Assembly (NCBI GenBank): GCA_008632985.1
Contig: QPGO01000041.1
Span: 124,001 to 188,000 of the forward strand
Reading direction: 5' to 3'
Length of the DNA stretch: 64,000 bases
Source: Psammoneis japonica
Lineage: Eukaryota
The notes under the pieces are model-generated. The model was not told where the DNA came from and did not search any database. It was given only the letters and a program-made list of their open reading frames with translations. A program made the position numbers and the translations under genes. The stretch's first letter is position 1; every line of letters starts with the position of its first letter. Positions 28,269 to 58,259 of this stretch are shown here, one piece after another.

Positions 28269-28359
28269 GGCGACTTACAGAAGATGTGCGTCGTCGCAGT
28301 GGGTCGATCGCGCGGAGGGCGGCGTCATTTTTTCGAAGCCCGGAATAGCATGGTCGCCT

Positions 28360-29500: not shown

Positions 29501-29792
29501 GGTCACTCGCACAGTGGATGGAGTACGAACTCTTCGTCGTGCTTTTTTCAGTGCGCGTCATCTGATCGTTGACCCCGAATCCCGAATCCGGGTGCCCGGC
29601 CGGGCAATTCAAGACAACTTTGAATCGTGGTTCTCATCGAATCGTGCATTCCGTTTCGGTGCGACGACCGGCCGACAAGGTGTGATTCTGACACAACTTT
29701 GCCTTTGACCATCATCAGAGAATTCTTCACTCATTTCATCGCCTTAGTGACGCAATCGACATCTACACACATCAAAAAAGACTCCAAGCACA

Positions 29793-37062: not shown

Positions 37063-37556
37063 GGCTATCTTTGGTTCTCTTTTACAGCTAAGATCGATGA
37101 AAAAGCATGCAATCAATGTACAGTGACACCGCATCGCACGTGATGAAAGACACCGAAGCACCAACCGACAACGCGACACACACGTCTGAAAACCTGAAGT
37201 GCATTCTACGGAATTCTCCAACGTGTTTGAAATCGACTAGCAAGAGGAGCCATGCAATCACTGTCCTTTCCTTGTCCGGCACATGTGTCCCCTGCCACCC
37301 TGCAATGCGATGGCACAAGGCAACTCTTGGTGCATGCGATCGAGAAGGAAGATGAGAAACAAGCAACTGCGACAACGGGCAACGCGACAACGGTTTGTGT
37401 GTTGTTAGCATGTTGTGGGCCCCGCGTTTTTCCTGTGATCAAGCACTTCCTCGTTCACGCGCACATGCGCGGATGGAGTGCGGGGCCCGTCGCGGGGGGG
37501 GGGGGTGCCGTCTTCTTTTCCGAAAATCGCCCCGCTGTCCAAAGGCCTCTCTGCTG

Positions 37557-37931
37557 CTGATTGTCATAGAAAATCTGTGTCGATTTGAAAATCTGTGAGA
37601 TTATTTTATTGGGGGCCGAATAAAATCTGCAATGTTTTAGAACGGAAAATCTGGAATCTGGACCCGTCTGTCTTCCCCCCTGCAGTGGCACAAATGCACG
37701 TGGGGTGCACGTAGACCACGCCGGGCCCACTTTTACCGCGCCGGGCCTGCAGAACGGTTCTTCAAAGTTCGCATTAATTTGGCAAAATTCGGCAAAAATT
37801 AACCCCGGTTTTAGACGAACAATTGAAAATCTGAGCTTTTTGAAAATCTGCAACTGTTTCTGCGAACCCCTTGAAAATCTTTAAGAAATCTGAACCCCAA
37901 ATCTGTGCCACAGATTTTCTATGACAATCAG
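37557..37931. mobile_element. MITE-like element (375 bp) with perfect 23-bp TIRs and internal AAATCTG repeats
   Basis: ctgattgtcatagaaaatctgtg (37557-37579) is the reverse complement of cacagattttctatgacaatcag (37909-37931). No clear TSD. Confidence 0.85.
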
Positions 37932-38202
37932 GTAGAGCAGCTGCGAGAGTCAGTCCTGCTTGTGTGTTGAGTGTCAAAAAGTGCTTGCATCTCCACGCGC
38001 GTCTCCCCTCGTTCGTTCGGGCCGTGGGTTGCAACAAGCAAGAGTTGAGAGCTGCCCTTGGAACATGACGGTTCCAGGTTCGAGACACTCCTGTCATGGC
38101 ATCTTTCAAATGGAGCACAGCTGAAGGAGACAAGAGAGCAACAGCATCAGCAGTCATGTGGAAGATGACGATGCGGAGTGGTTCGATGAAAAAACCAGCA
38201 CA

Positions 38203-38592
38203 GACGCGTTCCAGGTCTAGGTGGGACCTCGTACTACTGAACTGTGACATCGATAGTTTTTTGAATCACGTCGTATGTCGCGCACGTAGATTTCTACGTG
38301 ATTTTTTTGACATTTTGTGTCATTTTACGGTGCACTTATTGAGCGATCCGTCCAACAACTTTTGACATTTTTTGTTACAGCGCGATTCTATAATGTCTTA
38401 AGAATCGCGTAGGGCAGGTGCATTTGCAAAAACGTCGAGTGGTAAGAGGCATAATTGTACCACAAACTTGGCCGTTTATTTGATGTTGAAGACAAATGTA
38501 TGCATTAATTAAATTCTCGTACTACGGAGCTCGCACGTAGAATTCTACGGGCCCAATGTCACACGGAGTCCCACCTAGGGCTGGAACGCGTC
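38203..38592. mobile_element. MITE-like element (390 bp) with 25-bp TIRs (23/25) and flanking CACA direct repeats
   Basis: gacgcgttccaggtctaggtgggac at the left versus gtcccacctagggctggaacgcgtc at the right; caca at 38199-38202 and 38593-38596. Confidence 0.85.
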
Positions 38593-39479
38593 CACAAACA
38601 AGCACACTGGCAAGCTCCCACTGCCAAACATGGACAATCCCCAACACAGTGGCCCATGAGAACAGACAAGCCATGCATCTTTGTCTCCCACATGGGATGA
38701 GACGGAGTCAAGGAGGGGCTTGCAAGACCAACACATTGGTTTTTGGAGAACATTTTGCTCGCAGACGCCTTTCTCGATGATGCGCCCGGCACAGATCTCT
38801 AGGGCCAAGACAAGTCATGGGCTCTCATGCGGCCAGCCTGTGAGTGCACTCACACTGTCATCATTTTCTCGCCCTCCTGCTGAAAGCAGAAATTTTGTGT
38901 CAAGGAATTGAGTGTTTTTGACGACCGATTGAGGCTTTCTTGTGATGCCAAGGCCGCTGCTGCTGCTGCCGTCAGCAACAAGAACAACTCTCTTGCAAAT
39001 TCCAAGTCCTGCCAGCCCTCTGGAACATGATGAATTGGATGCCATGAACAGGTGAAGGACTTGACATGGATTGGCCAGCACACATGGAATCCTGCCAACT
39101 GCATGATTCAAACGTTGTTGTGGCCGAAACTCTCAAGAATGCTGCTCCAGACTGCTGCCAAAATGCCATTGGAAAAAATGTTGCAAGAGAATCTTGACAC
39201 ATGCATGGAGTCTCTAATCAGAGGGCCATCCAACATTCCTCAAGATTTGTTGAAATTTGCCAAGGAACATTGTTTGCCAGTGCTTGTTGGGGCCAGTGAC
39301 TGTGGCGGTTCTTTGTCAACAGTGTCATCCTCAAATGATGAATGCTGCATTGCCAGAGCCATGTTCTCAAGAGGACGTTACATGGATGAGGACAGAAAGT
39401 AGAGCCATCAGGTTCTCAAGAGCAAAAAGCAGATTCAAAGAAACCTTGACTGCACTGTGAAGCATGGAAGTGGCGCGGT

Positions 39480-41150
39480 CACATGTGGTGATGTAAAAAT
39501 GCAGAAGGAGTGGCGCGGCAGTCTCTTTCGTGCAAGGTGGGTTGTTTGAGTCGAAGTTGAAGCAGACATCAGACACCAGGAGGTGCAAGAGTGATGGGAT
39601 GGTGCAGGTGTGGTGTGGGGAGCTTTTAGTTTGGGTGTCGCAGAGGCGTGATGAAAGGCCGTCAAGGTTGGTGCGGAAGTTGGAAGCTTTCTGTTCCAGG
39701 CATGGGCGGGTGAAGGCTGGGCTGCCAATGGGTTGGCCGAGAAAGCAGTGTCCGGTGGTGATTTTGGGGTGCAAAGTGGGGTCGTTTGTGGGGTTGAGGA
39801 AGGTGAGGGCTTGGTGAAGGGCATCGGCGCTTGCCGGAGGCAGGTTTGGCACAGGGCTGGTGCCAGATGTAGAGGTGAGCATGTGTGTTTTGGAGCAGTT
39901 GAGGTGCACGCCGTGTTGCGGTCCAAGCTCCTTGAGGCATTGAAGGAACCATGGGAGTTTGGTGCAGGGGAGCCACATGCTGGTGTCACTGATGAGGGAG
40001 GCAGTGGATGTGATGTTGGATGAGGGGAGGCATTGGCAAAGTTTGGTGTTTAGTTGCTTGAGTGCGACACTGAGGATGAGGGCAGAGAATGGAGGAGCCA
40101 GTGGGCAGCCTTGGGAGAAGCCCTTGGGTTGTGGGAACGATTTCCAATTGCCGTCAGCATTGCAGTGCCAACAGGCATTTGGCGTGTTGCAGCAGAGGTC
40201 AAAGATGGAGACAAGGTGTCTGAAGGCGGGGTTGCCATCAAGGAGCTGCCGACAAGTGTCGCGCAAGCACTCATTGAAGAAGTTGAAGAGGTTGAGTGCA
40301 AGGAAGGCATGGGTTGGTGTTGGGACATTGAGACAGTGCTCAACATTAGCATGAGTGGCGTGGATGAAGCAGTCAAGGCCGCCTTTGATGCCTGTTCCAA
40401 ATTGACCATCCGGGAGGAGGCAATCTGTGAGAGTGGGCACGTTGACGGTCATGGTGAATGCACTGGCAATGCAACAGATTGCAGGGCCGCAGCCAACAGG
40501 GCGCAGTTTGTTGAGGTTGGTGGGGTCTTTGTGCAGTGCGATGAAGTGGTTTGCAGCGATGTGGGGTTGGATGGTGGTGGGGACAGAGTTGGTTTGGAGG
40601 AGCATCATTGCTTCTTTGAAAGTGGCAAGATGTGGCCGAAGTTGCATCTTGGTGGGGGAGCTTGTTTTGAAAAGAGCGCAGCCTTTGAGGAGGTCAGTGG
40701 AGTCAGAGCAAGGGCCAGTGGCAGTGCCTGGTTTGCACTTGCTAAGGGCGGCAAGGAGTTGGTTGTCGGAGACGGGTGGTGGCAATGGTGGGGGCAGAGT
40801 GGGTTGTGTGTTTGAGACGCGGATGTCGGTGGTGGGCATGGGGTGCATGGTGGACATGGTGCATGGATGAGGGGGAGGCATGCAGCATTGGTGGTGGCAA
40901 CTGGGAGATCAGAGGTGACACGATGGCATGCAGTGCCGATGTTGTCAGCATCGGCAGACACTTGGGCCACATGGCAGCAGGTGGAGGTGGAGAAGTCGGG
41001 TGCATGAGTGTGTTGTGCACGCATTGATCCCAGCATGTCGGAGTTGTGCAGGAAGCACACTGTCGCAGTGGAGTGGGGTCTGCCGCATGGAAGTGGGAAG
41101 GATTTTGGTGGAAACGTGCGGTCCATGTAGAGTCTGATGCATCATGTTGA
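39480..41150 (-). mobile_element. Decayed non-LTR retrotransposon, reverse transcriptase fragment (CRE-like)
   Basis: IALHK..KLRPVGCG, QFGTGIKGG, ALNLFNFFN, GFSQGCPLAP, degenerate YxDD (LISD), GVHLNCSKT, FLGQPIG. Confidence 0.85.
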
Positions 41151-41538
41151 TGTCCATCCTTCCATCAGAGAAACTGACAGTCTGACATGAACGGTTCGAA
41201 AGAGAGCTCCTCATTCTTTGTGTTTGTCTGAGAGGGACGAAGAATCAAGGAGCAAGGAGGCAATTTCAGGAGCATTGCCATGGAATGGTTTGTTGCATGT
41301 CTCATGTGTCGCGTGAATGACACATGCAACAAACACTGTTGTCGACCAGCTTGAGAGAGTGCAAGGGGATGAGAGCCACCAAAGCAGCAGCAGCCACTCA
41401 GAAGTGCCGGCACAATGAACCCACACTGGCTGTGTCCAGTGCACAAGCCACCAGGGATGCTGCTGCTCCTGTTGCTTCAAACCAGAGTGCCGACAACAAT
41501 GTTGCAGTGCACCAAGAGCCACAAAAACAAGAAGAGAG

Positions 41539-41811
41539 TCAAAGATCAAAGAGATGCCACCACTGAGGAGCAAACAAGTGCAGTGTTGAAAACAGCAACT
41601 CATGTGGCAGGCAGAGGGCAGAGGAATGCAAAAGGCATCAGGGGGACAAACACCCATGATGCAAATCCAACATCTGTTTTAGAGCCAGTTGTGTCCACTG
41701 GGCAAAGGTTGCAACAACTGCTGGCCAAGCATGCAGAAAACATTGCCTCCTTGGCTCAGCTGCTCTGCTTGACTGTGCCTCCTTTTGAGTGACTCTCCCA
41801 TGGTCAAGACT
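41539..41811 (+). repeat. Dispersed repeat fragment, homologous to 28360-28632
   Basis: Direct sequence similarity; this copy has lost more CG. Confidence 0.85.
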
Positions 41812-41819
41812 CATGTTTT

Positions 41820-42060
41820 GCATGGCAGTGCTTGGCAAAATTGAAGTGATGGCTCTTGGGGCAATGTTGGGAACACCGCCAGGTGCCAAAGATGGAGCGT
41901 CACTTGGGTCATCTGATGGCAAAACAGAAGGTTGAATTGAAGGTAAGTTGCTTGATTGAGATGGCATGTTGCAGGCTGCAGGCTTGGAGCATTGGAGGGA
42001 GCAGTGCTGGGTGCTGCACTTGGCAATCTCAAAGGCAAGTCACTGGGCATCTGGTGCAAT
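41820..42060 (-). pseudogene. Decayed PSxxPS mucin-like coding fragment
   Basis: MPSDLPLRLPSAAPSTAPSNAPSLQP and PSIQPSVLPSDDPSDAPSLAP in two frames. Confidence 0.5.
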
Positions 42061-43274
42061 GGAGTGGTGCTTTATGAAGGCAAAGGAAAGGCACTCGGTG
42101 TGATGCTGAGAATGCCGCTGGGCACTCAATGTCTCTTGGTGTCTCTTGGTGGAGGCCAGAGCAAAATGGCGTGTGATGTGGCAACAAGCAACAGATGCTT
42201 GGAAGTGGTCAATTTCAAACCAGCAAAAAAGTCTTGTTTCCAAAGACCATGCAGAGCAGCAGCAGACAGAATTGCACTGTTCAACATGATTGCTTGACAG
42301 ACAATTGCCCACGAGTCTTTGCCACAGGAGAATGCACAGTGTGCACTGCACTGACTCAAAAAGTTGAGTGCATTGCAACAAGCCATGTGCACTGGTGCAA
42401 AAATCACGCAGAATTTTCATGCAAAAAAATCACAAAAATCAGGGTCTGCTGTGCTTCTCGGCTCCACCGATGCCTCAAGGAATTGTTTTCACCTGAAACC
42501 ATTGACACCTCACATGATGGCTTTTGCACAAGCAACACGATTCTGTGTGTGAAGACTTCAAAACCCCATTTTTAGAAATTTGATCAACTCTTCGCTGCAG
42601 CCCCACTGTGGCAAACATTTTGTTCCAATTGTGGAATTTTGCCAAACTGTGGACATTGTCATGTTTGTCATCAAAAAGCAGGCACACAAAGTGTCAACTG
42701 TCATGACTGAAATCAATTCCTTGAGGTCACAGCCCATTTTTTGCAAAGCATGGGAAAAGCTTGATGAACAAGATGTGCTGCATGAATTTCCTGTGTGAGT
42801 TTTGTGCCATGAATTGGCCCAAACCCTTCTTTTTTGAACTCATGACCCCTGCACATGGCTTGTCAAAAGTTGAGCACATTGCATTTGCATTGGGTGTCAA
42901 CTTCTTCCATCTCTGAAGATTGCCTGTGCCTGGTCCATCCCAGCTCTTGCCATCCATGCCATTGAGCAAGTGCAGGTGTGGCACCAAGGTCAACACAAGC
43001 ACCAACTTGGAACTTGCATGAGACGTGTGGCTTGCTTTGGGTTGTGGGCTGGTTCTGTGCACAAGCCTGCAACACACATGTGCAGTGTTAAGAGCTGCTT
43101 CTTTTCACTGACCATGAAGGAGTTAATTTGATCTCATTGTCTCTGACAACCTTGTCAACTGTGCCTTTCTTGCAACTGCTTGATGTCACGGCCACATTTT
43201 CATGTTTGGCGTCTTTTTTGATTTTTCATGCACATGGCATGCTGTCACCCATTTTGACCTGTGAAACAATTGCA

Positions 43275-44590
43275 CCATGCAGACAGGCTGCCACTGCACG
43301 ATGATGACACAATCAATGAAAATGCGGGTTGTTTGCCATTTGGCACACAGCAACAAGTGCATTGTTCATGATGAGCTGAGTGCATCTCCTTCTCTGTCTC
43401 CTTTCTTGCTTTGCCGGCACCTGCCATGCAACTCAATGTGTGCCCATGCAACTGGAAAATTGCGGTGCTCTGAGATGCTCTCGCAAAACAAAATCACATT
43501 CCTGCTTTGTGCCAGCAGGCACACAATGGCAACCAGCAACAACTTCCACTTCTCCATTGACCTGCTGGTCCATGCAAACCATTTGGGGTGGTGCAAGCCG
43601 TGGCAGAGCAAGGGCCGTTGTTGGGCAACCAGCAACAATCATCAGTTTCATGCAAGGATCCATTGCATTTCTCAAACTTTCTGTCTTGGCCCAAGGTTGT
43701 GGCTTTGTCACATCATCCCCAATGGCAGAACTCATTGCACGATGGTTGGGCATCATTGCACTGCAAATGTCCACTTGGCTTTTGCAGCTTTTTTCTCAAG
43801 GCTGACAAGACTGCAGCTGTTGGTGTTGCATCACAGCTTGGTTTTGTTGCAGAAATCCTTTGCAGCATCATCACCAAGGAGCACAAGATGATGGGATTTG
43901 CACTGGGGCTGCATCCTTTTGCAGTGCTTGCTGGTTGGCTGCTTCAATCTGTTTGCTGCAAACGTTCACACAGATCTCATCAACAAGATTCTCTTTCTGG
44001 TTGGTTGTTGTTGAATGGATTTCTGTTTGCTTTGTTGCCATTGTGAGTTCTCCAGAATGGCTGGGGTGTGAAGGATGTGACAGCAAAAGTTGTTGGAATG
44101 ACTGGTGGTTTTGGACATTGGTTCATTGCCCATGTTGTCCATGTGACTTGTTTGGTTTGGAAGAGTGCTTCAGCTGCAGAGGAGGGTGCAGCTGTCAAAG
44201 CATTGACCTGGAGTCATTTGTTCATCCTTTTGATCCATTTCCCACCCTTGCCTGGCAAATCCCTTGGTGTGGACAAAGGAAAACAGTTGACCCTTTTGCT
44301 TGCCAAGCCACAACATTGGCTGGTCTTGTTTGTCTTTGAAAGATGTGATGACACAACAAAAGCCATCACAATGACACATGGTGTGCACAGACCCTCCTTG
44401 GCAATGGCAACGTGCATTTTAGACATGCTCTCCAGCCGTGCACTTGTCTCATGTCACCCAAGGTAACACTCTGGTGCACCAAGTCTGTCAAGTCTCATTC
44501 AAGAGACATCTGAGAGAAAGAGCCCCCTGTGAGATTTGGGGCATGCTGAACTGCAACATGTCAAGCTTGGCGTGTGGCATCTTCAGAACA
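43275..44590 (+). pseudogene. Hypermutated duplicate of the 32.6-34.0 kb membrane-protein locus
   Basis: Colinear with about 32625-33958, including flanks. Differences are dominated by TA->CA/TG and CG->TG/CA. Confidence 0.92.
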
Positions 44591-45417
44591 ACAGGTCCAA
44601 AACAGCCACATTTTGAGCCCACCCAGTTTTCCAAGCACCAGCAGACAGTCTGATCTGGTGGCACTGACCAGCCACAACTGCCAAGAAACCATGTCAGGAT
44701 CAGAAACACTGGCAATCAGAGCTCAGTGTCTCAAATCTTGTTGCATCTCCAGGCCAAATGATTTGTGGCAATTGGGCACTTCATCGCATTGCTTCAGCTC
44801 TTTCTCTCAATGGCACCCAAGAGCTTGTTGCCAAGCTTGGCATTGGACAGGTTGTTGCAGCAATGGTCATGGCAGTGGCCAAACAGTGACACAAATTTTG
44901 GCACATCAGCAACATGTCAAAAAGAGCAGCATCTGACTGCAGTTGCTTGCAAAACATTGCTCATCAGAGGCTGCAACACAGTGTTGTTCACTTTCCTTTG
45001 GAAAATTTGGAACATTTATTTTGACAATTGTGTGCAAAAATTAGTGACAGTTCATTTGTTTTTTGATGATCAATTTGCATTTGTTGTTGCCGTTTTGTGT
45101 TGGCAATTGTTGCCGTTTTATTTTGCTTTTAAGTTGCCAAAGAATTTCAACAAGCCCTTTGTTGTTGAATGATGCTTTTTGTTTTGATTGATTTTTCACA
45201 CATTTGTGGAATTGTCAACTTTGACAGTGCTTTTCAATGGCTTCACCGCAGCCTTGCGTCACCACAGACAATGGCATTTCTCCCTCGCCCCAGTCGGCCA
45301 CGCAATTGCCCAGAGGAACACTGTCTCATTGTTTCCACCTGCACGCTCCAGTTGTCCAGTCAATGGGCCCCCACCTGCATTTTGGTGCCTTTTCTGCATG
45401 CGCAGTTCTCCACCCAT

Positions 45418-45476
45418 TTCACAACAGCACACCCTCTCCCCAAAATGCTTTTGACGAGAGGGTGTGCTGTTGTGAA
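45418..45476. other. Perfect 21-bp-arm inverted repeat (hairpin) 40 bp upstream of an ATG
   Basis: ttcacaacagcacaccctctc (45418-45438) and gagagggtgtgctgttgtgaa (45456-45476), with inner caaaa/ttttg pairing. Confidence 0.9.
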
Positions 45477-45516
45477 TCCTGTGCATTCTACGTGAATCGG
45501 CAACTGACTGTTGGCC

Positions 45517-46956
45517 ATGGCGTCTGACAACTTTACCCCGTCTGACGACGAGGTCGACCCTGACCCTTCTTTCCAAATTGCTGAGGACTTGAATTTTGAT
45601 GAAATGGAACATTTCACCAATGGTTTCGGATTCGAATTGTTCCAACCCAAGCTCAAAAGCACAACTGCAACGCGTGCCTCGAAAAAGAAGTTTTTGGAGT
45701 CGACGAATTGGACCCCCTCTCCAGAATTCCTCGCTCTTCCCTTCCTTTGTCACAAGCCGAAGTTGCGCCGTGTTCCTCATGTTGCCGAAGTTGTCCGCAC
45801 CAATGACATTGCAAGGAAAACCCTTGGCTGTCCCGACATTTGGTCCTGCATCATGACTCGTGGTTGGTCCATCAAGAAATCCCACCGTGCGAAAGGCGAA
45901 TGTGTCCTGCGATGTAAAAATCTCGAGGAGGCTCTGCATTTCTCCAAAACATCCGGAGAGACAGAAAAAGAACAGCACAACCGTGTGCTTCTTCACCGCA
46001 ACATCCAGGCGATGGCAGAATTTGTTCACACGATCATTGCCGGAGACGACCCAAATGATCCTTTATCCGGTGAGCCTTGTTTCCGATTTTTGCGGTGCAA
46101 AAGTCTCCAAAGTTTGATCAACGATCGAGCCCAAGACCTCCACAGTGCCCATTTTGTCACTGACATCATCATGCGTTACGTTCAGTGCAAGCCCAAGGAC
46201 ATGGACTGTTGGTTCTTGAAGATTTTCCGTCACGTCAAAACCCAAAAGGAATGGTGCCTCTTTGTTGACAGCTTTCTGGTCATGTGCGACACTGATGATC
46301 CTGGTGCCCAGGCGGATGAGATCAAGGGGTTCCTTGACGACTCAACCGGCAACACAAAGAACACAGTGATGATGCAAGGCAATTCCCTTGCACGCCGTGA
46401 GGCTCACGAAGAAAAAATCAACTCCATGTTGAATCACGAATTTGGGAAGCGTTGTCCCAAGGAGCAAATTGGCATCCGACCTGGGCACAGCAAGCAGCTC
46501 ACAATGCTCCGTTGCAGAATGCGTGATCAGAGGGCCGACCACTTGGAAGACGACAACAAACGAATCTACAACTCCAAAACCAAACGCAAAATCAGGAGGA
46601 CCCGCAAGGATGGCACCTGTTTGTACGATGGTGAGAACCCCCCCCCCACCTCTTGCCTTCTGCCTTTCCGCCTGCATCTGTCATCTCAATGTCTCTTCTC
46701 ACACCCCATGGTTGTTCACGACCCACCAGAGCCTTCCTTGACCGTTCCCAACAAGAAGGCCAAGCCTGCATCTCGCAACAAACAAGCCCCTCCATCGCTT
46801 TCTGGCAATGTTCCGTCGTCTGGGGAGGCGCACCGGACTCTCACCGCCGACCTTCCGTCACTCTCAGAAATTGTGGAAAACCCAAAACCCACTTCTACCT
46901 CCATCCAAAGGTCCTTCGTCCAAACCTCATTCCTCTCCTCCTTCTGTTTCAGCTGA
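45517..46956 (+). pseudogene. Transposon cargo ORF A, unknown function; possibly the N-terminal part of the next ORF
   Basis: Long protein-like ORF (MASDNFTPSDDEVDP...), Tyr-poor and Cys/His-rich; overlaps ORF B by a frameshift or intron. Confidence 0.6.
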
Positions 46957-49500
46957 TCCTCCCGCAGTTACGTCTCCTCCCAGTGACCCCAAGGACATGT
47001 CGTGGCTGGACCTGTCCACACTCCGTGATCGCTTTGACCCATCCAAGTGTCAACCCGTCACCACCGAGGAAGTTTCTTCTCATTTGTCACACCTGCACAT
47101 CATTGACAAAGCCACCGACACTGATCGGGTGCTTCATCATTCTGCCGCCGACTTTCACCTGGCGGATGACTTGCGGGAAAACTGGCACATGTTCTCAAAC
47201 AATGCGCCATTGTGTGATTCCACCACCGCATCTCGTGTTCGAACCGAGCACCCTCCTGACCTCGATCACTTCTCCGAGGAACTCTCCGTTGCCCGTCAGG
47301 CTAACTCTCTGTACAAGGGGCACTTCGGGTGCCTTCGTGTGTGCATTCCCACCCTTCTTCCATTTATTTTGTTGAAGGGAGAGTCTGATTTGACACGTGA
47401 CGGACCGGTTGCAGTTCAAAACGGCGAAGCACGCAGGACAAAGTTCGGTTGTGCTGGGAGAGCGCATCACCCCAAGATGCCTGGTTCTGCCAAACTGGCC
47501 AAACCAAAGGCCACTTACGGACTTGATGTCTTTGAGTCCGATGACAACTTTGACGCCAACGAGACCTCCAAAATCAAGGCGATGGCAGCCGACATCCTTG
47601 ACTCGATTCAGCTTTGCGAAAATGAGGTAGAGCTGAAAAAACTGAGCAATCCACCACCATTTAACTGGTCACTTCGGTGCGAGGAATGCTCGCAAAAGTT
47701 GGGCAACGAAATGGGCTGTCTCTTCTTCAAACGTGAGGACGTCACCATGCAGGGATTGTGCATTTCCCGGGGTCAAGTCTGTGATGGTCACTGTGACAAT
47801 AAAAACTGCACCTGGCGTCAACATGGGAAGACAGCTGCCGGTTGCTTCTTTGTTGTGGATGCCTTTGGTGACATCTGGTCCTTCAAGGTTGTTGCCAACA
47901 GCAGAAGGACCATTGGTGAACACTGCGACGACCAGTGCGACATGAAGCCCATGCTTGCTCACACGCACCACAATCGAGCTCAGCTTGATTTTGCACTTAA
48001 AGACTTGGACTTGCAGCACGATGGTCCCACCCACCCCGATGTGTCGCTTTCCAGCATTACATTCAAGCATCTTTCCCTTGATGACAACAGGCCGCGGGAC
48101 AATGTTCTCATTGGTGGAGGTGGCGACTCTTCACATGTCGAGGTGTGCATGGATCGACTCAAGTTCCTGACTTTCCCAGTCAGGGACTTCCACTTGTCTG
48201 CCCCAGTCACAGTGATCTGCCGTTTCAAGAACATTGTGTGCCGATCGGGTCCCGACCCAAAACGAGTCATTCGTTTGGCGATCCATGCTGGTTGTCCCAC
48301 CGGATGTCACCGATTTTACTGCGTGGGGGACAAGCATCTTCCTGGCCTTTGTTGCAAAGGTGCTGACCCGTTTGTCAACTTTGCCAATTGCTTGCAGAAC
48401 ACATTTGGGGTGCCATGCGGTGACCCACAGGTGGGTGGGATCAGCCCTGCCAATTTGACATGCGAGAAATTTTGCGATGCATTTCTAGACCCTTGTTGCG
48501 TCGGAACCGCGAATGACCTAATTGACGCAATGGTGGAAGAAATCCATGCTGCACTTCTCTGGATGAACAACAACGTCGACACCAATGAGTTCTGTCCCAA
48601 CTTAATGGAACAATGGTGCAAGGCAGCGTGTGATGCTTGGGCAGACCGGGGAGCAGATTTCAGTGAGATTCGTCTCATGTTGGTGCTGCAATGTCTGGTG
48701 CTGGCAGGTGTCGCAGTGAAAGACCATCCAAGACTCAACGACATCATCTGTCCTGTCTTCAATTCGGGAGCTGCCGCACAACTGGGGCATGTTCAACCGG
48801 AAGAAAGGCCGCTCATGCACCAAAGGACATCATCCAAAACAGGAGCCGAAGAGCACAGTTGGAACGGAACCGAGCACAAACTTTGTGAGAATTCAGACAA
48901 TCGCTGCACCTGCATTTTTGATTGTGTTTTCCGAGGACCCTGTTCAGGACAAGACCTGTTTACCTTCTCTCCCTCTGGGCAGCGTCTCCGCAAGCCATGT
49001 GGGTCAACCGAGCATGAAATTTGGAGTGTGTTGACGACGACCCCAACCTTTGCCAATCACAAGACAACACTGAATCGCGCACATTTGTGTGTGAATCAGC
49101 CGTGCAATCAGACGGCACCAGTGTTTTCTCTGCTGTTGATGGACTGCCCACGGACAACAAACTCAGCTCATTGTCTTCGGAGGATTGTCGATTTGACGCG
49201 GAGAAAGAACCAAGTTCATTGGATTCGGAGGAGTCTCGACTCGCCGCAGACAATGAACTCAGCTCATTGTCTTTGGAGGAGTCTGTGTTGTCGGAGGACT
49301 GCTCGTGTCCTGATTCTGACTGCCGCGCTCCAATTGTCACGGTAGATTCTGTCATCCTTCAGTCGCAGGATCAAGAATCCGATGAAGATGACACAAGCAA
49401 CGCAACCACGTACGATCGACCCGAGCCACCGGTCCTTTTACAAGCACAAGATTTTGACATGGACAAACATGTGAACACTGTTTTTGAGCAAGTCTGTCAA
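46950..49500 (+). pseudogene. Transposon cargo ORF B: candidate TET/JBP-like dioxygenase + HhH/aGPT-PPlase-like domain with acidic tail
   Basis: HCDNKN (HxDxxN) at 47789, then WSFKVVANSRR at about 47876. GADFSEIRLMLVLQCLVLAG at about 48650 and NGTEHKLCE at about 48863. Motif-level resemblance only. Confidence 0.45.
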
Positions 49501-49639
49501 CAGCCAAAGAACTGCTGCAATTGTTTGGTGCCATGTTTTTCACAAATCTTGGTCCGCAACATGACTCCTCCTGTGCTTTTGTTTCACATTGTCATGTCAT
49601 CCCCAGACAAGACGGAAAGGCAAATGTCCTGTGGCTTTG

Positions 49640-50507
49640 CATGACGAGGCCCGTCATGGCCGGAAACCTGACATTAGATGAGACATGTTCGGACCGTGGC
49701 GTGGAGGCCATCCGATCCACTCAGCAAAGAAGAGATGAGGCAAGGTGTCAAGTCGTTCAGGATCTCCATACGAACTCAAATGTTTGTGCATGCCTGCAGG
49801 ATGGTGGCCCCGCTTGTCACTTGAATTGCAACATGTCCGCCAAGAATTTTGCCCAAAGGGTCAAGACGCGGTTTGGAACAGTGATTGATTTTAAGAAAAG
49901 TGGCTTCACTCAGATCTGCATGGACTGCTGCTGGATGCAAAAAGGGGAGTGGCTGCAGTTGACACTCGGAAATGGCTTCTTTGGCGAAAACCCAAGGGAT
50001 GTGATGGAAACGTTGTTTCATCCAAAGCTCCAGAGGTGCCGCATCATAATCCCGTGCACCATTTGGTCACCAACCCAAACCGCGTGCAATTTGGGTGACA
50101 TTTTGGAATGCGCACTGGCGCAGGCCATGACACAGGACATGGCATGTGAAACAGTGACGCTCTGCCAGGCTTCCCAGGAGATCATGGAGGAGTGCCGTGT
50201 GGATTGGCTGGGAAAACCATCTGACCAGGAAGCATCACATTTGGGAGTCACGGAACAGGAAATTCGGGAAACGCTGCCACATGAAGAAGCTAATTCAGTC
50301 CCAGAGTTCCTGCGAGAGTGTGGAAATTACAACCCGAAGGAACCATTCCTGTTCCTGTCCTTCGAGAGGAGAATTCCCGATTTTGGGGATGAGTTAAGGA
50401 AATGGCCTGGGAGTTGTTTGCTGTGCTGGTTCCCAGTTGGATTTGTGAGTGGATTGTCAAAGTGGGTGAGTGAACGTTGTCTCTGTTGTCCTTGTCGTCC
50501 CAATTGA
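49640..50507 (+). pseudogene. Transposon cargo ORF C, unknown function
   Basis: Protein-like frame within ORF 49521..50507, converging on the transposase 3' end. Confidence 0.4.
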
Positions 50508-50543
50508 GTTTTCTGCTGCTGTTGTCGGATGCTCACATGCTTT

Positions 50544-53500
50544 TCACCTGCTTTTGTGAAACAGCTCTCCCCATGCATTTCTGCGGTCTTGAACTGCCCA
50601 AACATGCTTTGTCCTGTCGTGTGTCTCAGCAATGCCGGGTTGCTCCTCATGCACCAACAATTTGTCACCAACAGCGTCGGTGGGCACCAAGAAAAGCTTG
50701 GGTGAGTACACTGTTTGTTCAGCAGAGGACAAGTTGTTGTTCTTCACTTGGTCCAATTGCCAGCGACCAACCAGGTCAGTGTGTTGCATTCATTCAACCA
50801 TGGTGCGCTTGTTGGGCTGGCACGTGCAAGGGTGAACGACCGCATGCAAGTCACCGTCGCTTTCCCTTTGGAAGAAACAGTGAAGTCTTGACGGGAAGCA
50901 CAATTCCCCCCCAGTTGTGCCAAAGTTGACATTCGCCCAGTCGTTGTTTGGTCCTTCGCTGTTGCAGTCTGGGTGTGCGCGGCAAGTGTCTTTCCCGTTC
51001 TTGTGGCAGAATTCGGTTTTGCAAACAAGGTTGACGGTGAGGTCACCTCCTGCTCCAACGCATTCCCTCCACTTCTTTTGAAAGAAATGGAGCAGGACCG
51101 GGTGAACCTGACATTGTTTTTGCTTTCCGTGCCAGAGAAAGCTTGCTGCATTGTTTGTCACACTGCAGGTGATGGCAAAGGCACTGCCACCCAGTGTGTG
51201 ACTGTCGTCACCACATGCAACGTCCTTTCGTCCAACTCTCAATGTGATCCATGGGTTGGCCGACAACGCACGGTGCACCGTCATTTGGTCTTGCATGCGC
51301 GATGCAACCTGACCCAGGAAGATGTCAAAGCTGCATTGTTGTGCCGTGGCAGAGGGCAATTTGAAAAAATCCTCAAGCAAAGATTCTCCAAGACCAGCGT
51401 CAAAGTTCATGGCATGATGGAAATGACATAGAAAGATTGGAAGGTGAAGAAGCTCATGAAGTTTTTGCAGCTTCCACCCAGCCCCTTCGTGTCTGGGGGA
51501 GTGATGCATGATGCAAGACACCAGCAACCGAATTTTCTTTGTGATTTTGGTCAGGTCAGTTGTGTCGGTCGGTGGGTCGCTGAGTCGACACCAAGCATGG
51601 AAGGCAAGCAGGTCTTCCAGCAACTGGACGCATTGCCCAACACTGCAACTGAGGGGCTTTCTCTTTTTTTTCCTTTTCCATTGATTGTGGCTGTTGCCTT
51701 CATCCTCGGACTCGTCCGGTTGTTGTTCCACACAATCGTCTTCATCCGTTTTGCATGGATCATCTGTTCTGTTGTTGGAATGATGATCGTTGCCATTGTC
51801 GCACTCTTCCGGCATGTGATGGTGATTGATTTGGAACCCAGGTGTCCCACGCCCTGATGGCAATGGATGATCGTCTTGGTCTTCCTGGAGAAAACAAGAT
51901 TCGCAGACATCTCTGCCTTCCTTTGTCAGCAGCAACAAACAAAAAACAAAGGCCATCCCCGCCCAATGATGTGAGTTGAGGCAGGTGAGTGATGTTGCCC
52001 CGCCCTTGAAATTGGTTCGCAAGAAAGAATTGCACGTGGATCAGTGATTGCCAAACATTTTTTCCACCAATCTGTCGACCTCGCTTCTCACTGAGTTTGT
52101 CATGCTGTCAACAAAAACACCAACCTCCCTTTTTAAAGTTCCGTTTTCAAAAAGGTGCATCATGTCGCTTGCCGTGGAAAGGGTTGCTCCGAATGGCTGT
52201 TCTCCGAAATCTGCACTGAGCAAGCTGTTGGTGGGCACATTGTGCTGCTTCATGCAATGAAGCTGCTGCAGCCAGTGGCTCCTTTCTTGCTCGTCAAGAC
52301 TGAGATCATTTGCGTGGTTCTGGACTGACAAAATGTCGCCAGCCCTGACTGGTTCGCACTCCTTCCAAGGGTCGTCAAGCTCATTGCATCCGGTCATGCA
52401 AAACCTGGAACAACATTGGTGACAGTTCTTGGCACCACACCCACCCACAAGGCAGTCACCACTCTTCGCATCTCCATTGATTGGGGTCATTGTTGGAATG
52501 ACATGAAGGAAACGTGTCTCATCACCGCGTCGAACGCAGCAGCGAAAGCCACCGTTTTCCATTGTGTCTGGCAGAGGCTGGAGCATTGTTGCCAACACCT
52601 TGTGATGATCCTGGATGCTTTGGCCCTTCTCCGACTTTCGAGCATTAGATTGCTGTTTGGCGGTGGAGGAGGACATTTTTTCTAGGTCGGGAATGCAGCC
52701 AAGGACACGCCACTTCGCTCTGTCATGCCATTGGTTGCAGGCAACATGAGCCGACGTAACCATGACGGGTTCTCCGCAGGAAGACGACATGGAGGCTGTC
52801 TTCCCAGTCTTGTCAACGTAAATTGTCAAACATTCAAGGAACTCTTTAAGAGGATCCGAGACCCTGGCTGCACGCGCACTTCTGTGCCACTCTCCTGCCA
52901 AAACACACTTGTCGTGCTTTCCCTTTGAGACATGCGTTCCGCATGGATCGGCAGTGTCGGCGAGATTGCTGGGGTTGGCCCATGTGCAAGCATCCAGCAT
53001 GAACGATTCCCACACATCTTTGAAATTCCATCGCGGAGCTCTTGCCATTGTCTCACCGTGTTCCCCATTGATGCTTTCTAGGTTGACTGGAATCATCTCG
53101 CATTCCGGACCTGCAAAAGATTTGTGCAGGTTCTCCACCAGTTTGGTCTGGCAAGGGATTTGTGTTCCAAGATGGAAGGTGCTGCCACAGTGTCTTTCGA
53201 TGAACTCGGCGATCTTGTCGCACAGGTGAAGCGGTGCTCTGCAGTCATCTAAGAGCTTGCACAGCTCTGCACAAGCACCGTTGAGGTTGCCAAGAGATGG
53301 CATGCATGCAAAGGTGTCTTCGGCTGGGCTGCGGTGCACCTTGCCCAATTGGCTGTCTTCACTCCGCGAATCATCTTCGTCTGAGCTGTTTGATTTGTCA
53401 GGATTTGCAACTTCGGAGCCCTCCATTGTGACATCTGGCAGCGCGTCAAACGAGTTGTCTGGTGACAAGCTGGCTTCGGAAGACAAGTCCAGGGACATGT

Positions 53501-53942
53501 CATGAATTTCCTCGTGATGGGATCACGGCCCAAGAGCGGAAATGTCATCATCAAACGGCGGTGACCATGGTTCATCGCTTCTGTCGTTTTTGTTGTCAGT
53601 GGACCCAAGCCTGATGTTTGCTGCGGATGCACCTCGTCTGGACCGCCTCAGCCATGGCTGTGACGCGTCATCTGATGAGGAGGAAATGTCGAGATCAACC
53701 GACCCACGTCTGCGAGAGAATTTGTTGCTGACGTTGGAAGATTTAGCCGCAACCCTTGCTGACAACTCTGGCATTGGGCAGTTTGTGACTGCATCGCGAC
53801 GTGACAAGTTGGGCATCTCTTGAGCAAACGAAAAACATGGTGGGTCATGATGGAAATGGGTGAGCATCCGTTTGAAGGATCGTTTGCAACGGGGACATGC
53901 CACCACACCACCCCCACCCTGCCAACCACCATTTCCTTCCAT
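50544..53942 (-). pseudogene. Plavaka transposase (~1130 codons) with N-terminal Zn-finger-like motif; three in-frame TGA stops
   Basis: ORFs 53523.., 52041.., 50790.. and 50544.. are one frame. Motifs CPRCKRSFKRMLTH, IYVDKTG, WRVLGCIPDL, NGDAKSGD, DMMHLFENG, GWKLQKLHELLH, NFDAGLGE, RAHPDCNSEGPNNDWANV. Confidence 0.85.
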
Positions 53943-54257
53943 TTGTTGTTGCAGCAGGTTTGTGGGCCACCCAAACACATGTGTGTTCGAATGGCAGCAC
54001 TGGTTCAGTTCGTGAAAAGTGAAATGGTTTGGGTGGCAAGGAAGGAAAACATGACATGAATTGGTGCGAAAACATGGGTGCATTGTGTTCTTCCCATCAA
54101 TGAAAACATTGACAGGTGAGAATGAATCGAGTGCGTTGTGATGATTGACAACTTTGAGCATGAATGGCTGATTGCAAATGTTGTTTTTCTACGGAAAGGA
54201 AAAAATAAGTTGTGACATGATGAGCCGTGATGCGTTGCAGCGAGAAGTCCAGGAGGG

Positions 54258-55433
54258 GTGCACCCACACCTGCTGCAGCACCAGACACAAACGTTGCAAT
54301 CAACAATGAATGCTGTTGCACAAAATGACCGCTTGACAGCACATTGGCCAAACGACTGCTGGAGGAGATTTGAAAGTTTGACAATCATGACGGCAGATGG
54401 AAGGCAACAAATCATGGAATCGGAGCACGAGGCGGCTTTTGATGAATTGGATTGTTTGATGCAAAGTTCACCACAAGGTGGGATGGTGCATTCTGATGAC
54501 ACGGGTGCAGCTTTGATCGAGTTTGAGAGCGGCACACATGCGGTTGACCCACACCTGCGCCGTGACGCGATGGACCTGCAACGCATGATGAACGAGGACG
54601 ACATCGAAGGGAGGTGGCAGGAACCATGGAAGCAGAGGTGCAACCACATGGTTTGGCTGCACGAACATGTGAGTGATTGGAGCACAGAAGCAATTGAGTG
54701 CATGCACGCCAGCACAGGCATGATCTCAATTCACGACAACCTGAACTGGTTGAATGGCATCGTCAACTGTGGCATTGGTGCTCGCCATCACCCGGAGCAT
54801 TGGGGCTGCATTGCAACTCACCAAGACAGGCAAGGAAGGATGTGCTGTGTCTGCAGTGCTCTGCACAATGAAGGAGAGAAAGAGCTGAGGGATGAATTTG
54901 CAGCGGGTGCATGTGATGGTGCAAAACCAGTCATTGACAGGGGAGACGTTTCGAGATTGAGACGGAATTCGAGCGTCAGCATGCCAACCCATGGCATGGA
55001 CGAGACAGGCACTTGCAGACCGTTGGGAGAAACATCGGCAAGGGGAGGCACATGCGGACTTGCAATGGACAAGAAGGGAATTGTTTGCGATGCATTAAAA
55101 CTGGCGAAGTGGTTCCAGCATGACATCGTGCGAGACAACCATGAAAGACTTTGGTTCTGTGAGCAAATGGAGTTCTTCAGGTTGTCTCCACGGACAGTCA
55201 ATGAACGGATGCTGGACATCATCCGGAAGGAGGATGGTGAGCGGGAGAAATTTCAAAGCAGGAGAAAGGAAAAGCACTGGGTGGAGAGACGTCGTCACGT
55301 TGAAGTTGACGAATTCATGAGAATGGTCGGAGCGGAGACGAGGGCTTTCACCCACATGACTGACTGTTCCGACATCGGGCGACACATCAAGTTGAGAGTT
55401 ACGAAGTTGGAGGGTGATGACGAACTGGACTAG
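54258..55433 (+). pseudogene. Transposon cargo ORF D, unknown function, divergent from the transposase
   Basis: 391-codon charged, protein-like ORF without Tyr. Confidence 0.55.
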
Positions 55434-55862
55434 AGAAAACGATTTGGCGCCAAAAAGGATGGATGTGCTTGGGCCCCAACAGCAAACCGGAACAACGTTG
55501 AAGCAGGTGAGGGGTTTGTTCATTGCAGCAAAAACAACTTTTGCAGGCGCATGTTTCACAATGATGTTTTGGACAAAACACTTTTGCAAGCAATTTGCAC
55601 TGTGGAAGTGGATTTCGAAATTGCAGCAAAAGAGAGGTTTGAACTGGAATTCGCAATGATTCAAAATTTTCACAAGATCACAAGGAGTGGTAAAATGGAT
55701 GAATCATGTGCACATCAAAAGATTTGGTTGATTCTCAATCATGTTGCATTTGAGAAAAAGGAATCATTGATGGCAACTGCAAGATTTTTGGCATTAAAGA
55801 GAGGTTTGAAAATTTTCCAACGGCGAAAATAACTGGGACACAAGGCATGGAGCCACCCACAA

Positions 55863-57066
55863 TTGGCAACAATGGCAAGGAAGAAGAAGAAAGGAACTGC
55901 GGGGGTGGCTGGAGATCAACCAACAAGCCCAAGGCTGGCCGCAGTGTTGGTGTGGGTGGGAGCCACTGGGGATCACCAGTCTGTGAAGAGAGAGGTGGAA
56001 GAGGTGGCGTGGAAGGAACTTTTCCCAAAGGCAAAATTCCTTGTCAAGGCGGACATGGCAAGCAGTGGCAAAGTGTCGCGGCTCATCAGGAAAAAGACAG
56101 CCGGAGGAAATTACAGCAAGCGAGACTGGGCGGGAGCATGGGAAGACTGGGCAAAGAAGTGCGTCATGTGTGCAATTGACACGAAAAGGAGCACGGTCAC
56201 TCAGGCGATCAAGAACAATGCAATGGCTGGCAAGTGTTTTGTGGTGCACGGCATGTTGAGTGCAGTTGCACTCAACACAACTGCACCTTCATTTGTTGAA
56301 GTCATGTTGACAGAGAATGAAGCAGAGGAGACACACAGTCAGAAGCCAGCAGCAAAGGGTGGAGGTGGGAAGAAGAGCAAGAAGAGGAAGAAGAACGATC
56401 GCACGGAAGAGGAAGAGCCGTTCCTGGTGACTTGGGGGGAGGAGACTGTGACAACGATTGTGGAGGACAAGCGCAAGAACAAGGAAGCACATGCTTGGTT
56501 CTACGAAAACATCCTGAAATTCACAAAGAGCACCACCACATGGAGAAGAAAGGCAGAGTCGGGTGAGACAAAGGCAACCAGTCAGGCTGCAGCGAGCGAC
56601 GAGGCTCTAGCGCTGTTGACATTGGAAAACTGCTGGAAGAGTTGGGAGCACAAGGCACGTCATGACAAGACTGTTGCAGCAGGGGGGGGGGGGGTTCGGA
56701 CGAAGAAGATGAGGAAGAGTCGGAACCAACACTCAAGTGCACGCAGGGATCAAGCGATTCAACGAACTGCTTGCGGCAGCAAAGAAAGACAGGTTGAGTG
56801 AGGAGGGCATGCAGTTCGACACATGGTGCAGCAAAGGCAAGAAAAGGAAGAGTGACGAAAGAGGCAAGGGATCGAAAAGAAAGAAAAAGCAGGTGGAGGA
56901 GGCAAGAACACAGGCAACGATGGAGCTTTCAAGTGACGACGAGGAGAGGGAGGAAGAGGCAACGGACGAGAACAGAGGAGACGAGGACAGCAACGAAGGG
57001 GAGGAGGACAGTGATGCGGAAAGCGATGCGAGTGTAGATGCAGATGGTGAGCGAGCTGCGGCATGA
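55863..57066 (+). pseudogene. Transposon accessory gene (SDEALALLxLEN / GIKRFNEL family), probable intron 56230-56301, acidic tail
   Basis: KRSTVTQAIK, HAWFYENIL, SDEALALLTLEN, GIKRFNELLAAAKKDR; homologous to the gene at 337-1420. Confidence 0.7.
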
Positions 57067-58097
57067 AAAGGCAGCGGAGGCTTTTGTTAGTGTGACAATG
57101 GAAAGAGGACAAGCAACGCAGCAGGCTTCAATGTCAACAGTTGTGAGGTTTGACAAAGTGTCAAAGGGATCATTGTTTTGTGATCTAACCTTTCGTTTGA
57201 CAACCAGTGCATGCAACAGAACCAGTGCATGCAATGGAACGTTCTCTTGACCAATGTAACGCAATGATTGGCATTAAATTGTCATCAACCAAAACGTTGT
57301 GAACATTGCTTTCAAAAGGTAAAAAGTGACGGAATTCTGACAGTCAAGGGAGGGGTCCCACAGGCAAAGGAGGGGTCCCATGGTGAAAAATGCAATGCTG
57401 TGATGTGTGATAAAAAATCACGTTCTACACAACTCACTCAATGTGAAACCATTGCATTCACACCTGTGATGGCATTGAAAATCACCTGTGAGAAGGGTGG
57501 TCAGGATCACTGTGTTTCGCGCTCTGATGCTGCTGTCAGCAAAATGAAAAGCATGCATGGTCAACTGCAACTGCTGACAACAATGAAAACTTGAACTTTC
57601 TTCCTCCACATTGACATTTCTTGACATCATTGAGATGCCAGCTCACATCTCTGGCAAAATGGAGACAATGCATGCACTGGCTGTCAGCTGTCCCAAGTGC
57701 TGTGCAGGATCTGCATGGGCCTGGTGATGACTCAGAAAAAAGTCAACAACAAAAGAGCTGCAGCAGTTCTTGACTCAAGAGGAAAAAGTTTAAGGTCCTC
57801 TCAGCAAAAGAGACTTCTGAAACAGCTGTGAGATGTGCACAGAATGCAGAACGTCAGGGTCATCTGGGCAAGACATGTCATCCACCGCTGCATTTTTCAT
57901 GCCAGACAAATCATGTTTGCAGCACAAATTTATTCCAAGTTGGCCATGTGCTCAAGCAGGGCAGCACACCAAACACAAAACAGCAGCTGTTGTCCTTGAT
58001 GAGAAGCAGCAGCAGCCCAATCATCAGTGCACATCAGCAATCTGCACTCTCCTCCAAGATGACATCTTTGCAGAAGAAGAAGAAGAAGAAGAAAGCA

Positions 58098-58259
58098 ATG
58101 GCAGGTTCTTCAGCAGAATCCTTTGAATGCAACAGGTCTGTTTCAGCATGAGGTGCTCCACAATTTATCATTTCCTTCATGGCAGGTTCTTCAGCAAAAT
58201 TCTTTGAATGCAACAGGTCTGTTTTGGCATGAGGTGCTCCACAATTCATCATTTCCTTC
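58098..58259 (+). repeat. Tandem duplication, 2 x 81 bp
   Basis: atggcaggttcttcagca...atcatttccttc at 58098-58178 and 58179-58259. Confidence 0.92.

Follow-up and report, generated by a model that had tools for sequence, protein, structure and literature searches.

In a 64,000-nucleotide (nt) stretch of the genome of the diatom Psammoneis japonica (GenBank assembly GCA_008632985.1, contig QPGO01000041.1, positions 124,001 to 188,000 of the forward strand; hereafter the window), a host gene for a membrane protein is represented twice, once as an ordinary parent segment and once as a dead copy in which nearly every TA and CG dinucleotide has been replaced by CA or TG. The copy lies inside one of four sharply bounded blocks that are almost devoid of TA. 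On balance, we consider it probable that repeat- or transposon-derived stretches of the diatom nuclear genome are subject to strand-symmetric A:T-to-G:C mutagenesis at TpA, acting on DNA and aimed at silenced repeats. On either strand, the elementary event would be an A:T-to-G:C transition affecting an A with a T immediately before it, yielding CpA or TpG. Conversion would have swept up the 1.3-kb host-gene duplicate along with the DNA around it and spared the parent, which lies 10 kb away in gene-rich DNA; a decay of CG to TG or CA would be superimposed as a second process. Under this interpretation the blocks would be silenced transposon DNA, mutated in place after insertion, and the mutations would be the work of an enzyme, for which the likeliest candidate is a DNA-acting adenine deaminase of the ADAT2/TadA type, by analogy with the proposal made for Bigelowiella natans. 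All confinement counts and observed-to-expected ratios (o/e) reported below cover this single 64-kb window, and coordinates refer to positions within it (Table 1).

Local alignment of the parent with the copy, which lies on the same strand, spans 1326 columns, of which 1063 are identical and 85 are gapped (85.7% identity when gapped columns are set aside). Upstream, homology extends to about 32593-32622 in the parent and 43230-43273 in the copy, includes there a ~55-nt segment that is present in the parent only, and ends sharply at 33958/44590. From parent to copy we counted 178 substitutions, 127 of them transitions. The 42 aligned parental TA sites became CA in 18 cases, TG in 14, and CG in 2, with 2 kept and 6 otherwise changed, while the 49 aligned parental CG sites became CA in 22 cases and TG in 19, with 3 kept and 5 otherwise changed. 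Both strands were thus used almost equally at either dinucleotide (18 versus 14 at TA and 22 versus 19 at CG). Conversely, CA and TG were largely stable: 84 of 98 parental CA were kept and none of the 14 that changed became TA, and 102 of 112 parental TG were kept, with 10 changed. No TA was gained by the copy, since the two that it contains are both TA in the parent as well. Transitions affected 39 of 83 bases in TA compared with 30 of 567 other A/T bases (odds ratio, 15.9; p = 3.2e-21) and 42 of 97 bases in CG compared with 15 of 464 other C/G bases (odds ratio, 22.9; p = 5.4e-24). The resulting difference in composition is large. The parent segment (1267 nt) contains 44 TA, 53 CG, 103 CA, and 116 TG (TA o/e, 0.49; CG o/e, 0.77), and the copy (1300 nt) contains 2 TA, 12 CG, 148 CA, and 164 TG (TA o/e, 0.023; CG o/e, 0.16). 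With 2 of 44 parental TA surviving, ~95% of TA sites have been converted, and because these sites are saturated, the TA mutation rate can be stated only as a lower bound, at least some tens of times the background; outside TA and CG, parent and copy differ at 85 of 1031 sites (8.2%). The copy is a dead gene, with a CGA-to-TGA change at codon 3, a change of Trp to stop, and frame-breaking indels. Its 3′ end has no poly(A) tract.

We asked which of the two states is ancestral by comparing parent and copy with homologous proteins. An exhaustive search with the parent's 159-amino-acid (aa) C-terminal open reading frame (ORF) recovered six homologues among 1.84 billion representatives, the best of which (P0001; 304 aa) matched over its full length at 48% identity. 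A word-based homologue search with the same ORF gave no matches, and Pfam contains no family for the protein, which is predicted from a coding sequence at about 32771-33718 to have a signal peptide and to be a multi-pass membrane protein of an unnamed family. Parent codons were mapped to copy codons via the DNA alignment, and both were compared with five outgroup homologue proteins; 197 codons were compared, of which 40 differ between parent and copy. Where amino acid changes were attributable to TA- or CG-type substitutions only, the outgroups agreed with the parent alone in 12 cases and with the copy alone in 0, with 4 cases agreeing with both and 3 with neither. The corresponding counts for all other amino acid changes were 5, 5, 3, and 7 (Fisher's test of 12:0 versus 5:5, p = 0.0096). 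In every informative case of Tyr to His or Cys and of Arg to Trp, Cys, or His, the outgroups carried the parental residue: Tyr at parental TAT or TAC codons that read CAT or TGC in the copy, and Arg at parental CGN codons that read TGN or CAT in the copy. Judged from these protein comparisons, TA and CG are the ancestral states, and CA and TG are derived in the copy.

An earlier sequence-only reading of this DNA had traced the parent from 32625 and the copy from 43275, quoted seven pairs of words that differ between them, and proposed that nearly all TA and CG converge on CA or TG on both strands, that only the copy within the repeat domain is hit, and that DNA other than transposable elements can be a substrate. 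Its coordinates are correct, as homology continues 5′ of 32692/43291, and all seven word pairs occur in the alignment. The proposal itself holds up well: 32 of 42 TA and 41 of 49 CG became CA or TG in the copy, transitions were enriched 16-fold at TA and 23-fold at CG, TA and CG are normal in the parent, and the converted sequence derives from a host gene. An outgroup check, which could have revealed CA and TG as ancestral, instead agreed with the proposed direction.

The parent itself is not an intact gene as assembled. Relative to both P0001 and the copy, it has three 1-nt deletions, near 33056, 33100, and 33250, and the copy retains each of these bases. We compared the region with X1, the single public run that contains the TA-free domain, which is possibly the window's own source sample and not independent of it. 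Two further runs, X2 and X3, yielded no contigs on that domain, which counts neither for nor against it. X1 also contains a second allele of the parent stretch. Over 535 nt, this allele shows 14 substitutions and 5 gaps, one of the differences being an additional C behind 33056. The frame breaks could stem from errors in the consensus of a heterozygous region, or else the allele may be decaying. Should the breaks be real, the parent has kept normal TA and CG without selective protection, which would strengthen location or marking over selection as what separates the two copies. Another X1 contig (depth, 23.1) skips 93 nt at 32634-32728, just 5′ of the parent coding sequence and overlapping the ~55-nt segment confined to the parent. 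This indel may be polymorphic, and the mutated copy may derive from the shorter form.

The mutated copy belongs to a landscape of TA depletion with clear boundaries. The four TA-poor blocks together contain 116 TA in 26.9 kb, compared with 1443 in the remaining 37.1 kb. TA o/e ranges from 0.02 to 0.14 within the blocks and from 0.51 to 0.60 in the rest of the window, and CA+TG o/e is 1.5 to 1.9 inside and ~1.2 outside. Edges are sharp and could be located to about 100 to 200 nt. No terminal inverted or direct repeats were found around the island at 22.0 to 24.1 kb. The few TA that survive in the domains are skewed in context relative to those in host DNA, with ATAT (0 versus 129), GTAT (0 versus 115), and CTAT (0 versus 82) absent and TTAA retained (20 versus 52), and a multiplicative two-strand model of flanking bases fits these ratios. 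To the left of the large domain, a host-like stretch at 35500-38200 has a TA o/e of about 0.32 to 0.33 per kb with normal CG, which may reflect either partial spreading of the process or codon usage.

Table 1. Positions of the gene pair, TA-depleted blocks, repeats, and relic reading frames in the 64-kb window
Feature	Position (nt)	Strand	Characteristics	Basis
Hypermutated dead copy of host membrane-protein gene	43291..44590	+		Alignment, dinucleotide counts, translations
Parent gene segment	32692..33958	+	TA and CG content normal	Alignment, homologue search, block counts
TA-depleted domain	37250..60700 (left edge approximate, ~23 kb)	.	TA o/e 0.04-0.14; CA+TG o/e 1.5-1.9; sub-block CG o/e 0.16-0.70	Dinucleotide profiles
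Sub-block with deepest CG loss	41251..45250	.	CG o/e 0.16; contains gene copy	Block o/e counts
TA-depleted island cut by window start	1..2050	.	TA o/e 0.025; CG o/e 0.46	Dinucleotide profiles
TA-depleted 2.1-kb island	22000..24100	.	Sharp edges; TA o/e 0.028; CG o/e 0.28	Dinucleotide profiles
TA-depleted 1.5-kb island	28250..29750	.	TA o/e 0.084; CG o/e 0.75	Dinucleotide profiles
Repeat, first copy (in 28250-29750 island)	28361..28653		TA-free; keeps 9 CG	78% identity to 41539-41833
Repeat, second copy	41539..41833	+	TA-free	All 9 CG lost: 7 CA, 1 TG, 1 CT
MITE-like element inside TA-free domain	38203..38592	.	30-nt inverted ends at 87%; 26 TA (o/e 0.86); 28 CG	Inverted-end search, counts
MITE-like element inside TA-free domain	37557..37931	.	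Perfect 23-nt inverted ends; 12 TA (o/e 0.40)	Inverted-end search, counts
Ghost reading frame, 1132 codons	50793..54188	-	Broken only by two TGA; 1 Tyr, 64 His, 62 Cys	ORF scan, residue counts
Ghost reading frame, 867 codons	46742..49342	+	No stop; 3 Tyr, 42 His, 48 Cys	ORF scan, residue counts
MITE, miniature inverted-repeat transposable element.

TA loss and CG loss are two separable processes, because both members of a repeat pair in the window are TA-free and only one of them is CG-free, and because CG o/e varies from 0.16 to 0.75 among TA-free blocks. The pair in question (28361-28653 and 41539-41833) is the only one in the window besides parent and copy. Block 45251-57000 makes the same point, with a TA o/e of 0.08 and a CG o/e of 0.67. 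The sequence-only reading had treated both losses as a single process, whereas here they come apart. Since the extent of CG loss differs between blocks that all lack TA, CG loss is most likely due to deamination of 5-methylcytosine in methylated repeats. The same repeat pair bears on when TA was lost. Its members carry CA on one side and TG on the other at 5 of 45 CA/TG sites, compared with 6 of 192 in parent and copy (p = 0.037), which supports independent resolution of ancestral TA after the repeats had separated and hence mutation in place.

What the blocks consist of can be approached through the long reading frames they contain, which we refer to as ghost ORFs. The longest frames in the large domain encode 867, 513, 493, 482, and 416 aa, while 100 composition-matched, second-order Markov simulations gave a maximum of 455 aa and a mean maximum of 279 aa. 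Compared with host ORFs, ghost ORFs are poor in Tyr (0.25% versus 2.5%) and rich in His (4.8% versus 2.2%) and Cys (5.3% versus 1.9%). Long ghost frames are spread over 39370-56798, in several frames, and also occur at 652-1902. Conversion of TA to CA or TG would turn Tyr into His or Cys and remove TAA and TAG. Because such changes never make stops, dead transposon coding sequence would stay open as ghost ORFs nearly free of Tyr. The 867-aa ghost ORF had no homologues at E ≤ 1e-5 among proteins of 476 to 1518 aa, and a solved-structure search with two ghost ORFs returned nothing significant (best E-value, 0.008). Below the Pfam threshold, there were hints of a Plavaka transposase in the 1132-codon frame (E = 0.0038) and of RVT_1 (E = 0.022), and from its sequence the 1132-codon frame is probably a mutated transposon gene. 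No Rfam family was matched in the window. Depth in X1 was summed over all contigs placed at ≥90% likeness and is not a copy number. It is 31 to 88 across most of 39.0 to 44.6 kb and 55 to 84 over the gene copy, with peaks of 1156 at 42274-42740 and 780 to 3007 at 44609-46000. Altogether, frames and depth hint faintly that the domain is transposon-rich, a description that we draw from the sequence and not from annotation.

Two MITE-like elements of ~380-390 nt inside the large domain have escaped mutation. The bin that includes one of them (38071-38537, with the element at 38203-38592) has a summed X1 depth of 141,515, compared with about 50 nearby, and both elements are missing from a 460-nt X1 contig whose depth (24.7) is about half. 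At 38203-38592, this contig extends just 30 letters past the joint, one fewer than is needed to count as bridging. Both insertions are probably recent and polymorphic. Metagenome contigs scanned for the MITE end gave 0 matches. As the insertions keep TA, position alone does not mutate DNA quickly. This leaves two possibilities: a process that is slow or episodic, as in B. natans, in which only some lines mutated (10.64898/2026.01.13.699255), or one that takes the element rather than the place as its unit. If bin depth does reflect copy number, then repetitiveness alone is no trigger of mutation.

Targeting by chromatin domain or position, as put forward in the sequence-only reading, is no more than plausible. 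TA loss is common to blocks of differing CG decay and to bins of very different summed X1 depth, and the repeat pair made its CA/TG choices independently. Several findings weigh against this interpretation or against our preferred reading more generally. A purely positional rule is at odds with the two MITE-like insertions, which retain TA at an o/e of 0.40 and 0.86, and with islands as small as 1.5 to 2 kb that have sharp edges, as the unit of mutation could then be the element. The argument for mutation in place from CA/TG discordance is based on 5 events only. The transposon nature of the blocks has three weak supports, namely, summed X1 depth, ghost ORFs, and two sub-threshold Pfam hints, and 0 of the 127 window ORFs scanned (each ≥90 aa) passed the Pfam threshold. 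No terminal inverted or direct repeats, and no other structure that would indicate a route of arrival, were found flanking the gene copy. The flank model that fits surviving TA failed as a predictor of strand at 21 informative sites in the copy (7:8 versus 3:3, p = 1), and we make no claim regarding a third base. Finally, sequence alone does not separate adenine deamination from a thymine-side lesion at TpA, and the 2.9 kb over which X1 agrees with the assembly without difference (39074-41974) lie outside the copy at 43291-44590, in a run that is perhaps the source sample. Contigs of X1 differ from the window by at least 203 substitutions and 31 indels, and we claim identity for those 2.9 kb and not for the copy region.

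The alternative that fares best is mutation before insertion, in which a fragment captured by a transposon or virus was edited within the life cycle of that element, either as an episome or replication intermediate or, by an ADAR-like enzyme, at the RNA stage before being reverse transcribed, so that the blocks already lacked TA on arrival. Several features would be explained readily by such a history: the smaller islands are element-sized (1.5 to 2 kb) with sharp edges, the young MITE-like elements are untouched, and the high summed depth beside the copy could fit families of similar TA-free copies, although depth is not copy number. ADARs moreover prefer a U 5′ of the edited A, according to a preprint on B. 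natans (Mettrop et al., bioRxiv 10.64898/2026.01.13.699255). However, the two strands were hit equally within one copy (18 versus 14), which is not expected from editing of a single-stranded RNA genome, and conversion of ~95% of TA would take many rounds. Near-equal use of both strands in one copy together with near-complete conversion argues for repeated action on double-stranded genomic DNA and not for a single round on RNA or cDNA. Blocks of differing CG decay and bins of differing depth are all without TA, the repeat pair is discordant in its CA/TG choices (p = 0.037), and in B. natans it is integrated DNA that acquires the mutations (10.64898/2026.01.13.699255). We therefore regard pre-insertion editing as unlikely and retain mutation of integrated DNA as the preferred reading.

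A second alternative keeps the targeting proposed here and changes the chemistry. If the T of TpA were modified or damaged, for instance oxidized or hydroxymethylated by a TET/JBP-type enzyme, it would mispair with G and give T-to-C transitions. Thymine-modifying enzymes exist in protists, and because TA to CA on one strand is TA to TG on the other, the data fit T to C before A equally well. We found no direct evidence for this chemistry, and the sole published proposal for the signature is adenine deamination (10.64898/2026.01.13.699255). Thymine-side mutagenesis has, in our judgment, a small chance of being the correct account, and we continue to favor an adenine deaminase.

Very improbable is an artefact of assembly or base calling, in which modified bases in heterochromatin (5-methylcytosine at CpG, modified A or T at TpA) were misread and TA and CG are truly present. 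The affected steps are indeed two self-complementary pyrimidine-purine dinucleotides, typical sites of modification, and the three 1-nt frame breaks in the parent could be assembly errors. However, three X1 contigs (572, 1645, and 726 nt; word depth, 31 to 35; exact 31-mers) match the domain at 39074-41974 with 0 differences, and X1 contains 0.80 of sampled 31-mers of 42000-46000. Strand-specific miscalls at a palindromic step would produce mixtures of TA, CA, TG, and CG rather than unmixed CA or TG, 85 gapped columns and the substitutions outside TA and CG noted above also set the copy apart from its parent, and the ghost ORFs show a consistent loss of Tyr. Reversed polarity, with TA and CG gained by the parent from CA and TG, or selection against TA in the domain, is hardly credible, as only the symmetry of an unpolarized pairwise comparison speaks for it, while the outgroups favor the parent 12:0 at TA/CG-type changes, the TA o/e of the parent (0.49) is near that of host DNA (0.51 to 0.60) and that of the copy (0.02) far off, and selection is unlikely to act on the copy, a dead gene that already stops at codon 3.

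Elsewhere in the window, two tandem paralogous protein kinase genes with two cyclic-nucleotide-binding domains and EF-hands lie on the minus strand at 3990-9248. The paralogues share 65% DNA identity (4009-5349 versus 6871-8211), and the upstream one is apparently split over two ORFs. The best named relatives of the window's 801-aa kinase, which has cyclic-nucleotide-binding domains and EF-hands, are from diatoms (Attheya, Nitzschia, Seminavis, Odontella, and an "Asterion..." entry) at 54 to 61% identity, and its best unnamed match is at 73% identity. This gene content agrees with the sequence-only reading, which took the DNA to be from a diatom. At 20676-21360, internal tandem-like repeats with 70 to 79% identity occur within a 636-aa ORF (19642-21552) that has no Pfam family.

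These results have practical consequences for the study of such genomes. TA-free regions hold long relic ORFs nearly free of Tyr that gene finders would call as genes, and TA-free blocks could pass for horizontally transferred DNA in composition-based methods. TA loss can be distinguished from CpG decay block by block. The MITE-like family, with an unmutated member in a TA-free domain, offers a natural experiment, as a comparison of its members within such domains and elsewhere could show how fast the process is and what rule governs its targeting.

Among known systems, the CG half of our observations resembles the decay of methylated CpG in methylated transposons, which in diatoms we take to be CpG-methylated. 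As in such decay, CG became TG or CA symmetrically with respect to strand (41 of 49 CG; 22 CA and 19 TG) and to a degree that differs by block. Methyl-CpG decay covers only this half, however, and does not extend to TA.

Repeat-induced point mutation (RIP), known from Neurospora and other ascomycetes, likewise hypermutates DNA through transitions at a specific dinucleotide, disabling repeated or foreign sequences and leaving their dinucleotide composition strongly skewed. RIP makes TpA from CpA through C-to-T changes, whereas the process described here destroys TpA and leaves CA in place (84 of 98 kept, none to TA). RIP hits both duplicates, whereas here only the copy was mutated (TA o/e, 0.023; CG o/e, 0.16) and the parent was not (0.49 and 0.77). 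RIP also creates stop codons, which TA-to-CA/TG changes cannot do. In addition, DNA in the window is TA-free also at ordinary X1 depth, and the MITE-like element in a bin of very high depth is unmutated. We therefore rejected fungal RIP as an explanation, given that TpA is destroyed and a single copy mutated, in keeping with the sequence-only reading, which had contrasted the one-sidedness with RIP.

A-to-I editing by ADAR or ADAT and hypermutation by APOBEC share with our case clustered, deaminase-driven transitions directed against repeats and viruses. ADAR and ADAT substrates carry a U before the edited A (10.64898/2026.01.13.699255). In the known cases, the targets are RNA or single-stranded cDNA and the marks fall on one strand, whereas here both strands of one DNA copy carry them. 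ADAR-type hyperediting of RNA fixed by retrotransposition would leave A to G on one strand, and the copy combines 14 TA-to-TG with 18 TA-to-CA changes. The APOBEC-type pattern of C to T in TpC or CpC context was likewise not seen in the flanking bases of the copy: C became T before G at 20 of 49 sites, before A at 4 of 98, before C at 3 of 50, and before T at 0 of 73, and G became A after C at 22 of 48 sites, with 2 to 3 such changes after each of the other bases.

The closest counterpart is the TpA hypermutation of integrated nucleocytoplasmic large DNA virus (NCLDV) and virophage DNA in the chlorarachniophyte B. natans (Mettrop et al., bioRxiv 10.64898/2026.01.13.699255). According to that preprint, in mutation-accumulation lines, only some of which mutated, the mutation rate of two integrated viral regions is about 1000 times that of the remaining genome; 230 of 231 mutations in these regions were A to G or T to C, all 230 of them at TpA; the genome contains 124 clusters poor in TpA and rich in CpA+TpG; and an ADAT2-like deaminase was proposed as the agent. 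In full-text literature searches we found this preprint, and neither TpA loss nor TpA hypermutation turned up for diatoms. TpA-specific regional hypermutation is a rare type of targeted mutation that has to our knowledge been described once before, in 2026. Both cases show A-to-G and T-to-C transitions at TpA, giving CpA or TpG on either strand (32 of 42 TA in our copy), and both are confined to particular regions, which here were seen within one 64-kb window and consist of DNA that is putatively foreign or mobile but includes a host-derived gene copy. Both also leave lasting clusters that are poor in TpA and rich in CpA+TpG, which in B. natans are enriched in unannotated and in transposon- or virus-related genes. 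The differences are of several kinds. Our host is a diatom (a stramenopile), whereas B. natans is a rhizarian. Depletion in the window is near saturation, with a TA o/e of 0.02 to 0.14 compared with a Rho_TpA of 0.45 reported for the B. natans NCLDV region. CpG decay accompanies TpA loss here, while the terms "CpG" and "diatom" have 0 occurrences in the preprint text. Mutations were observed de novo in B. natans, where polarity comes from mutation-accumulation lines, and we have a footprint in sequence, with polarity from a host-gene duplicate. The outgroup-polarized pair of parent and copy is cleaner evidence of direction and complements the mutation-accumulation data.

A signature of this kind in a diatom would mean that the phenomenon is wider than was apparent, being neither the curiosity of one alga nor restricted to integrated viruses. 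It is possible, though we would put it somewhat short of an even chance, that diatoms carry an enzymatic DNA mutator that erases TpA from silenced transposon or foreign DNA, RIP-like in effect with the opposite polarity and without the creation of stops, and that Bigelowiella has this same system. In that case, genome editing directed at TpA would be an old defense common to the stramenopile-alveolate-Rhizaria (SAR) supergroup, acting on any sequence in marked chromatin, including host genes. By analogy in signature, polarity, and confinement, the blocks in P. japonica are best filed as a diatom instance, new and more extreme, of the TpA hypermutation described in B. natans.

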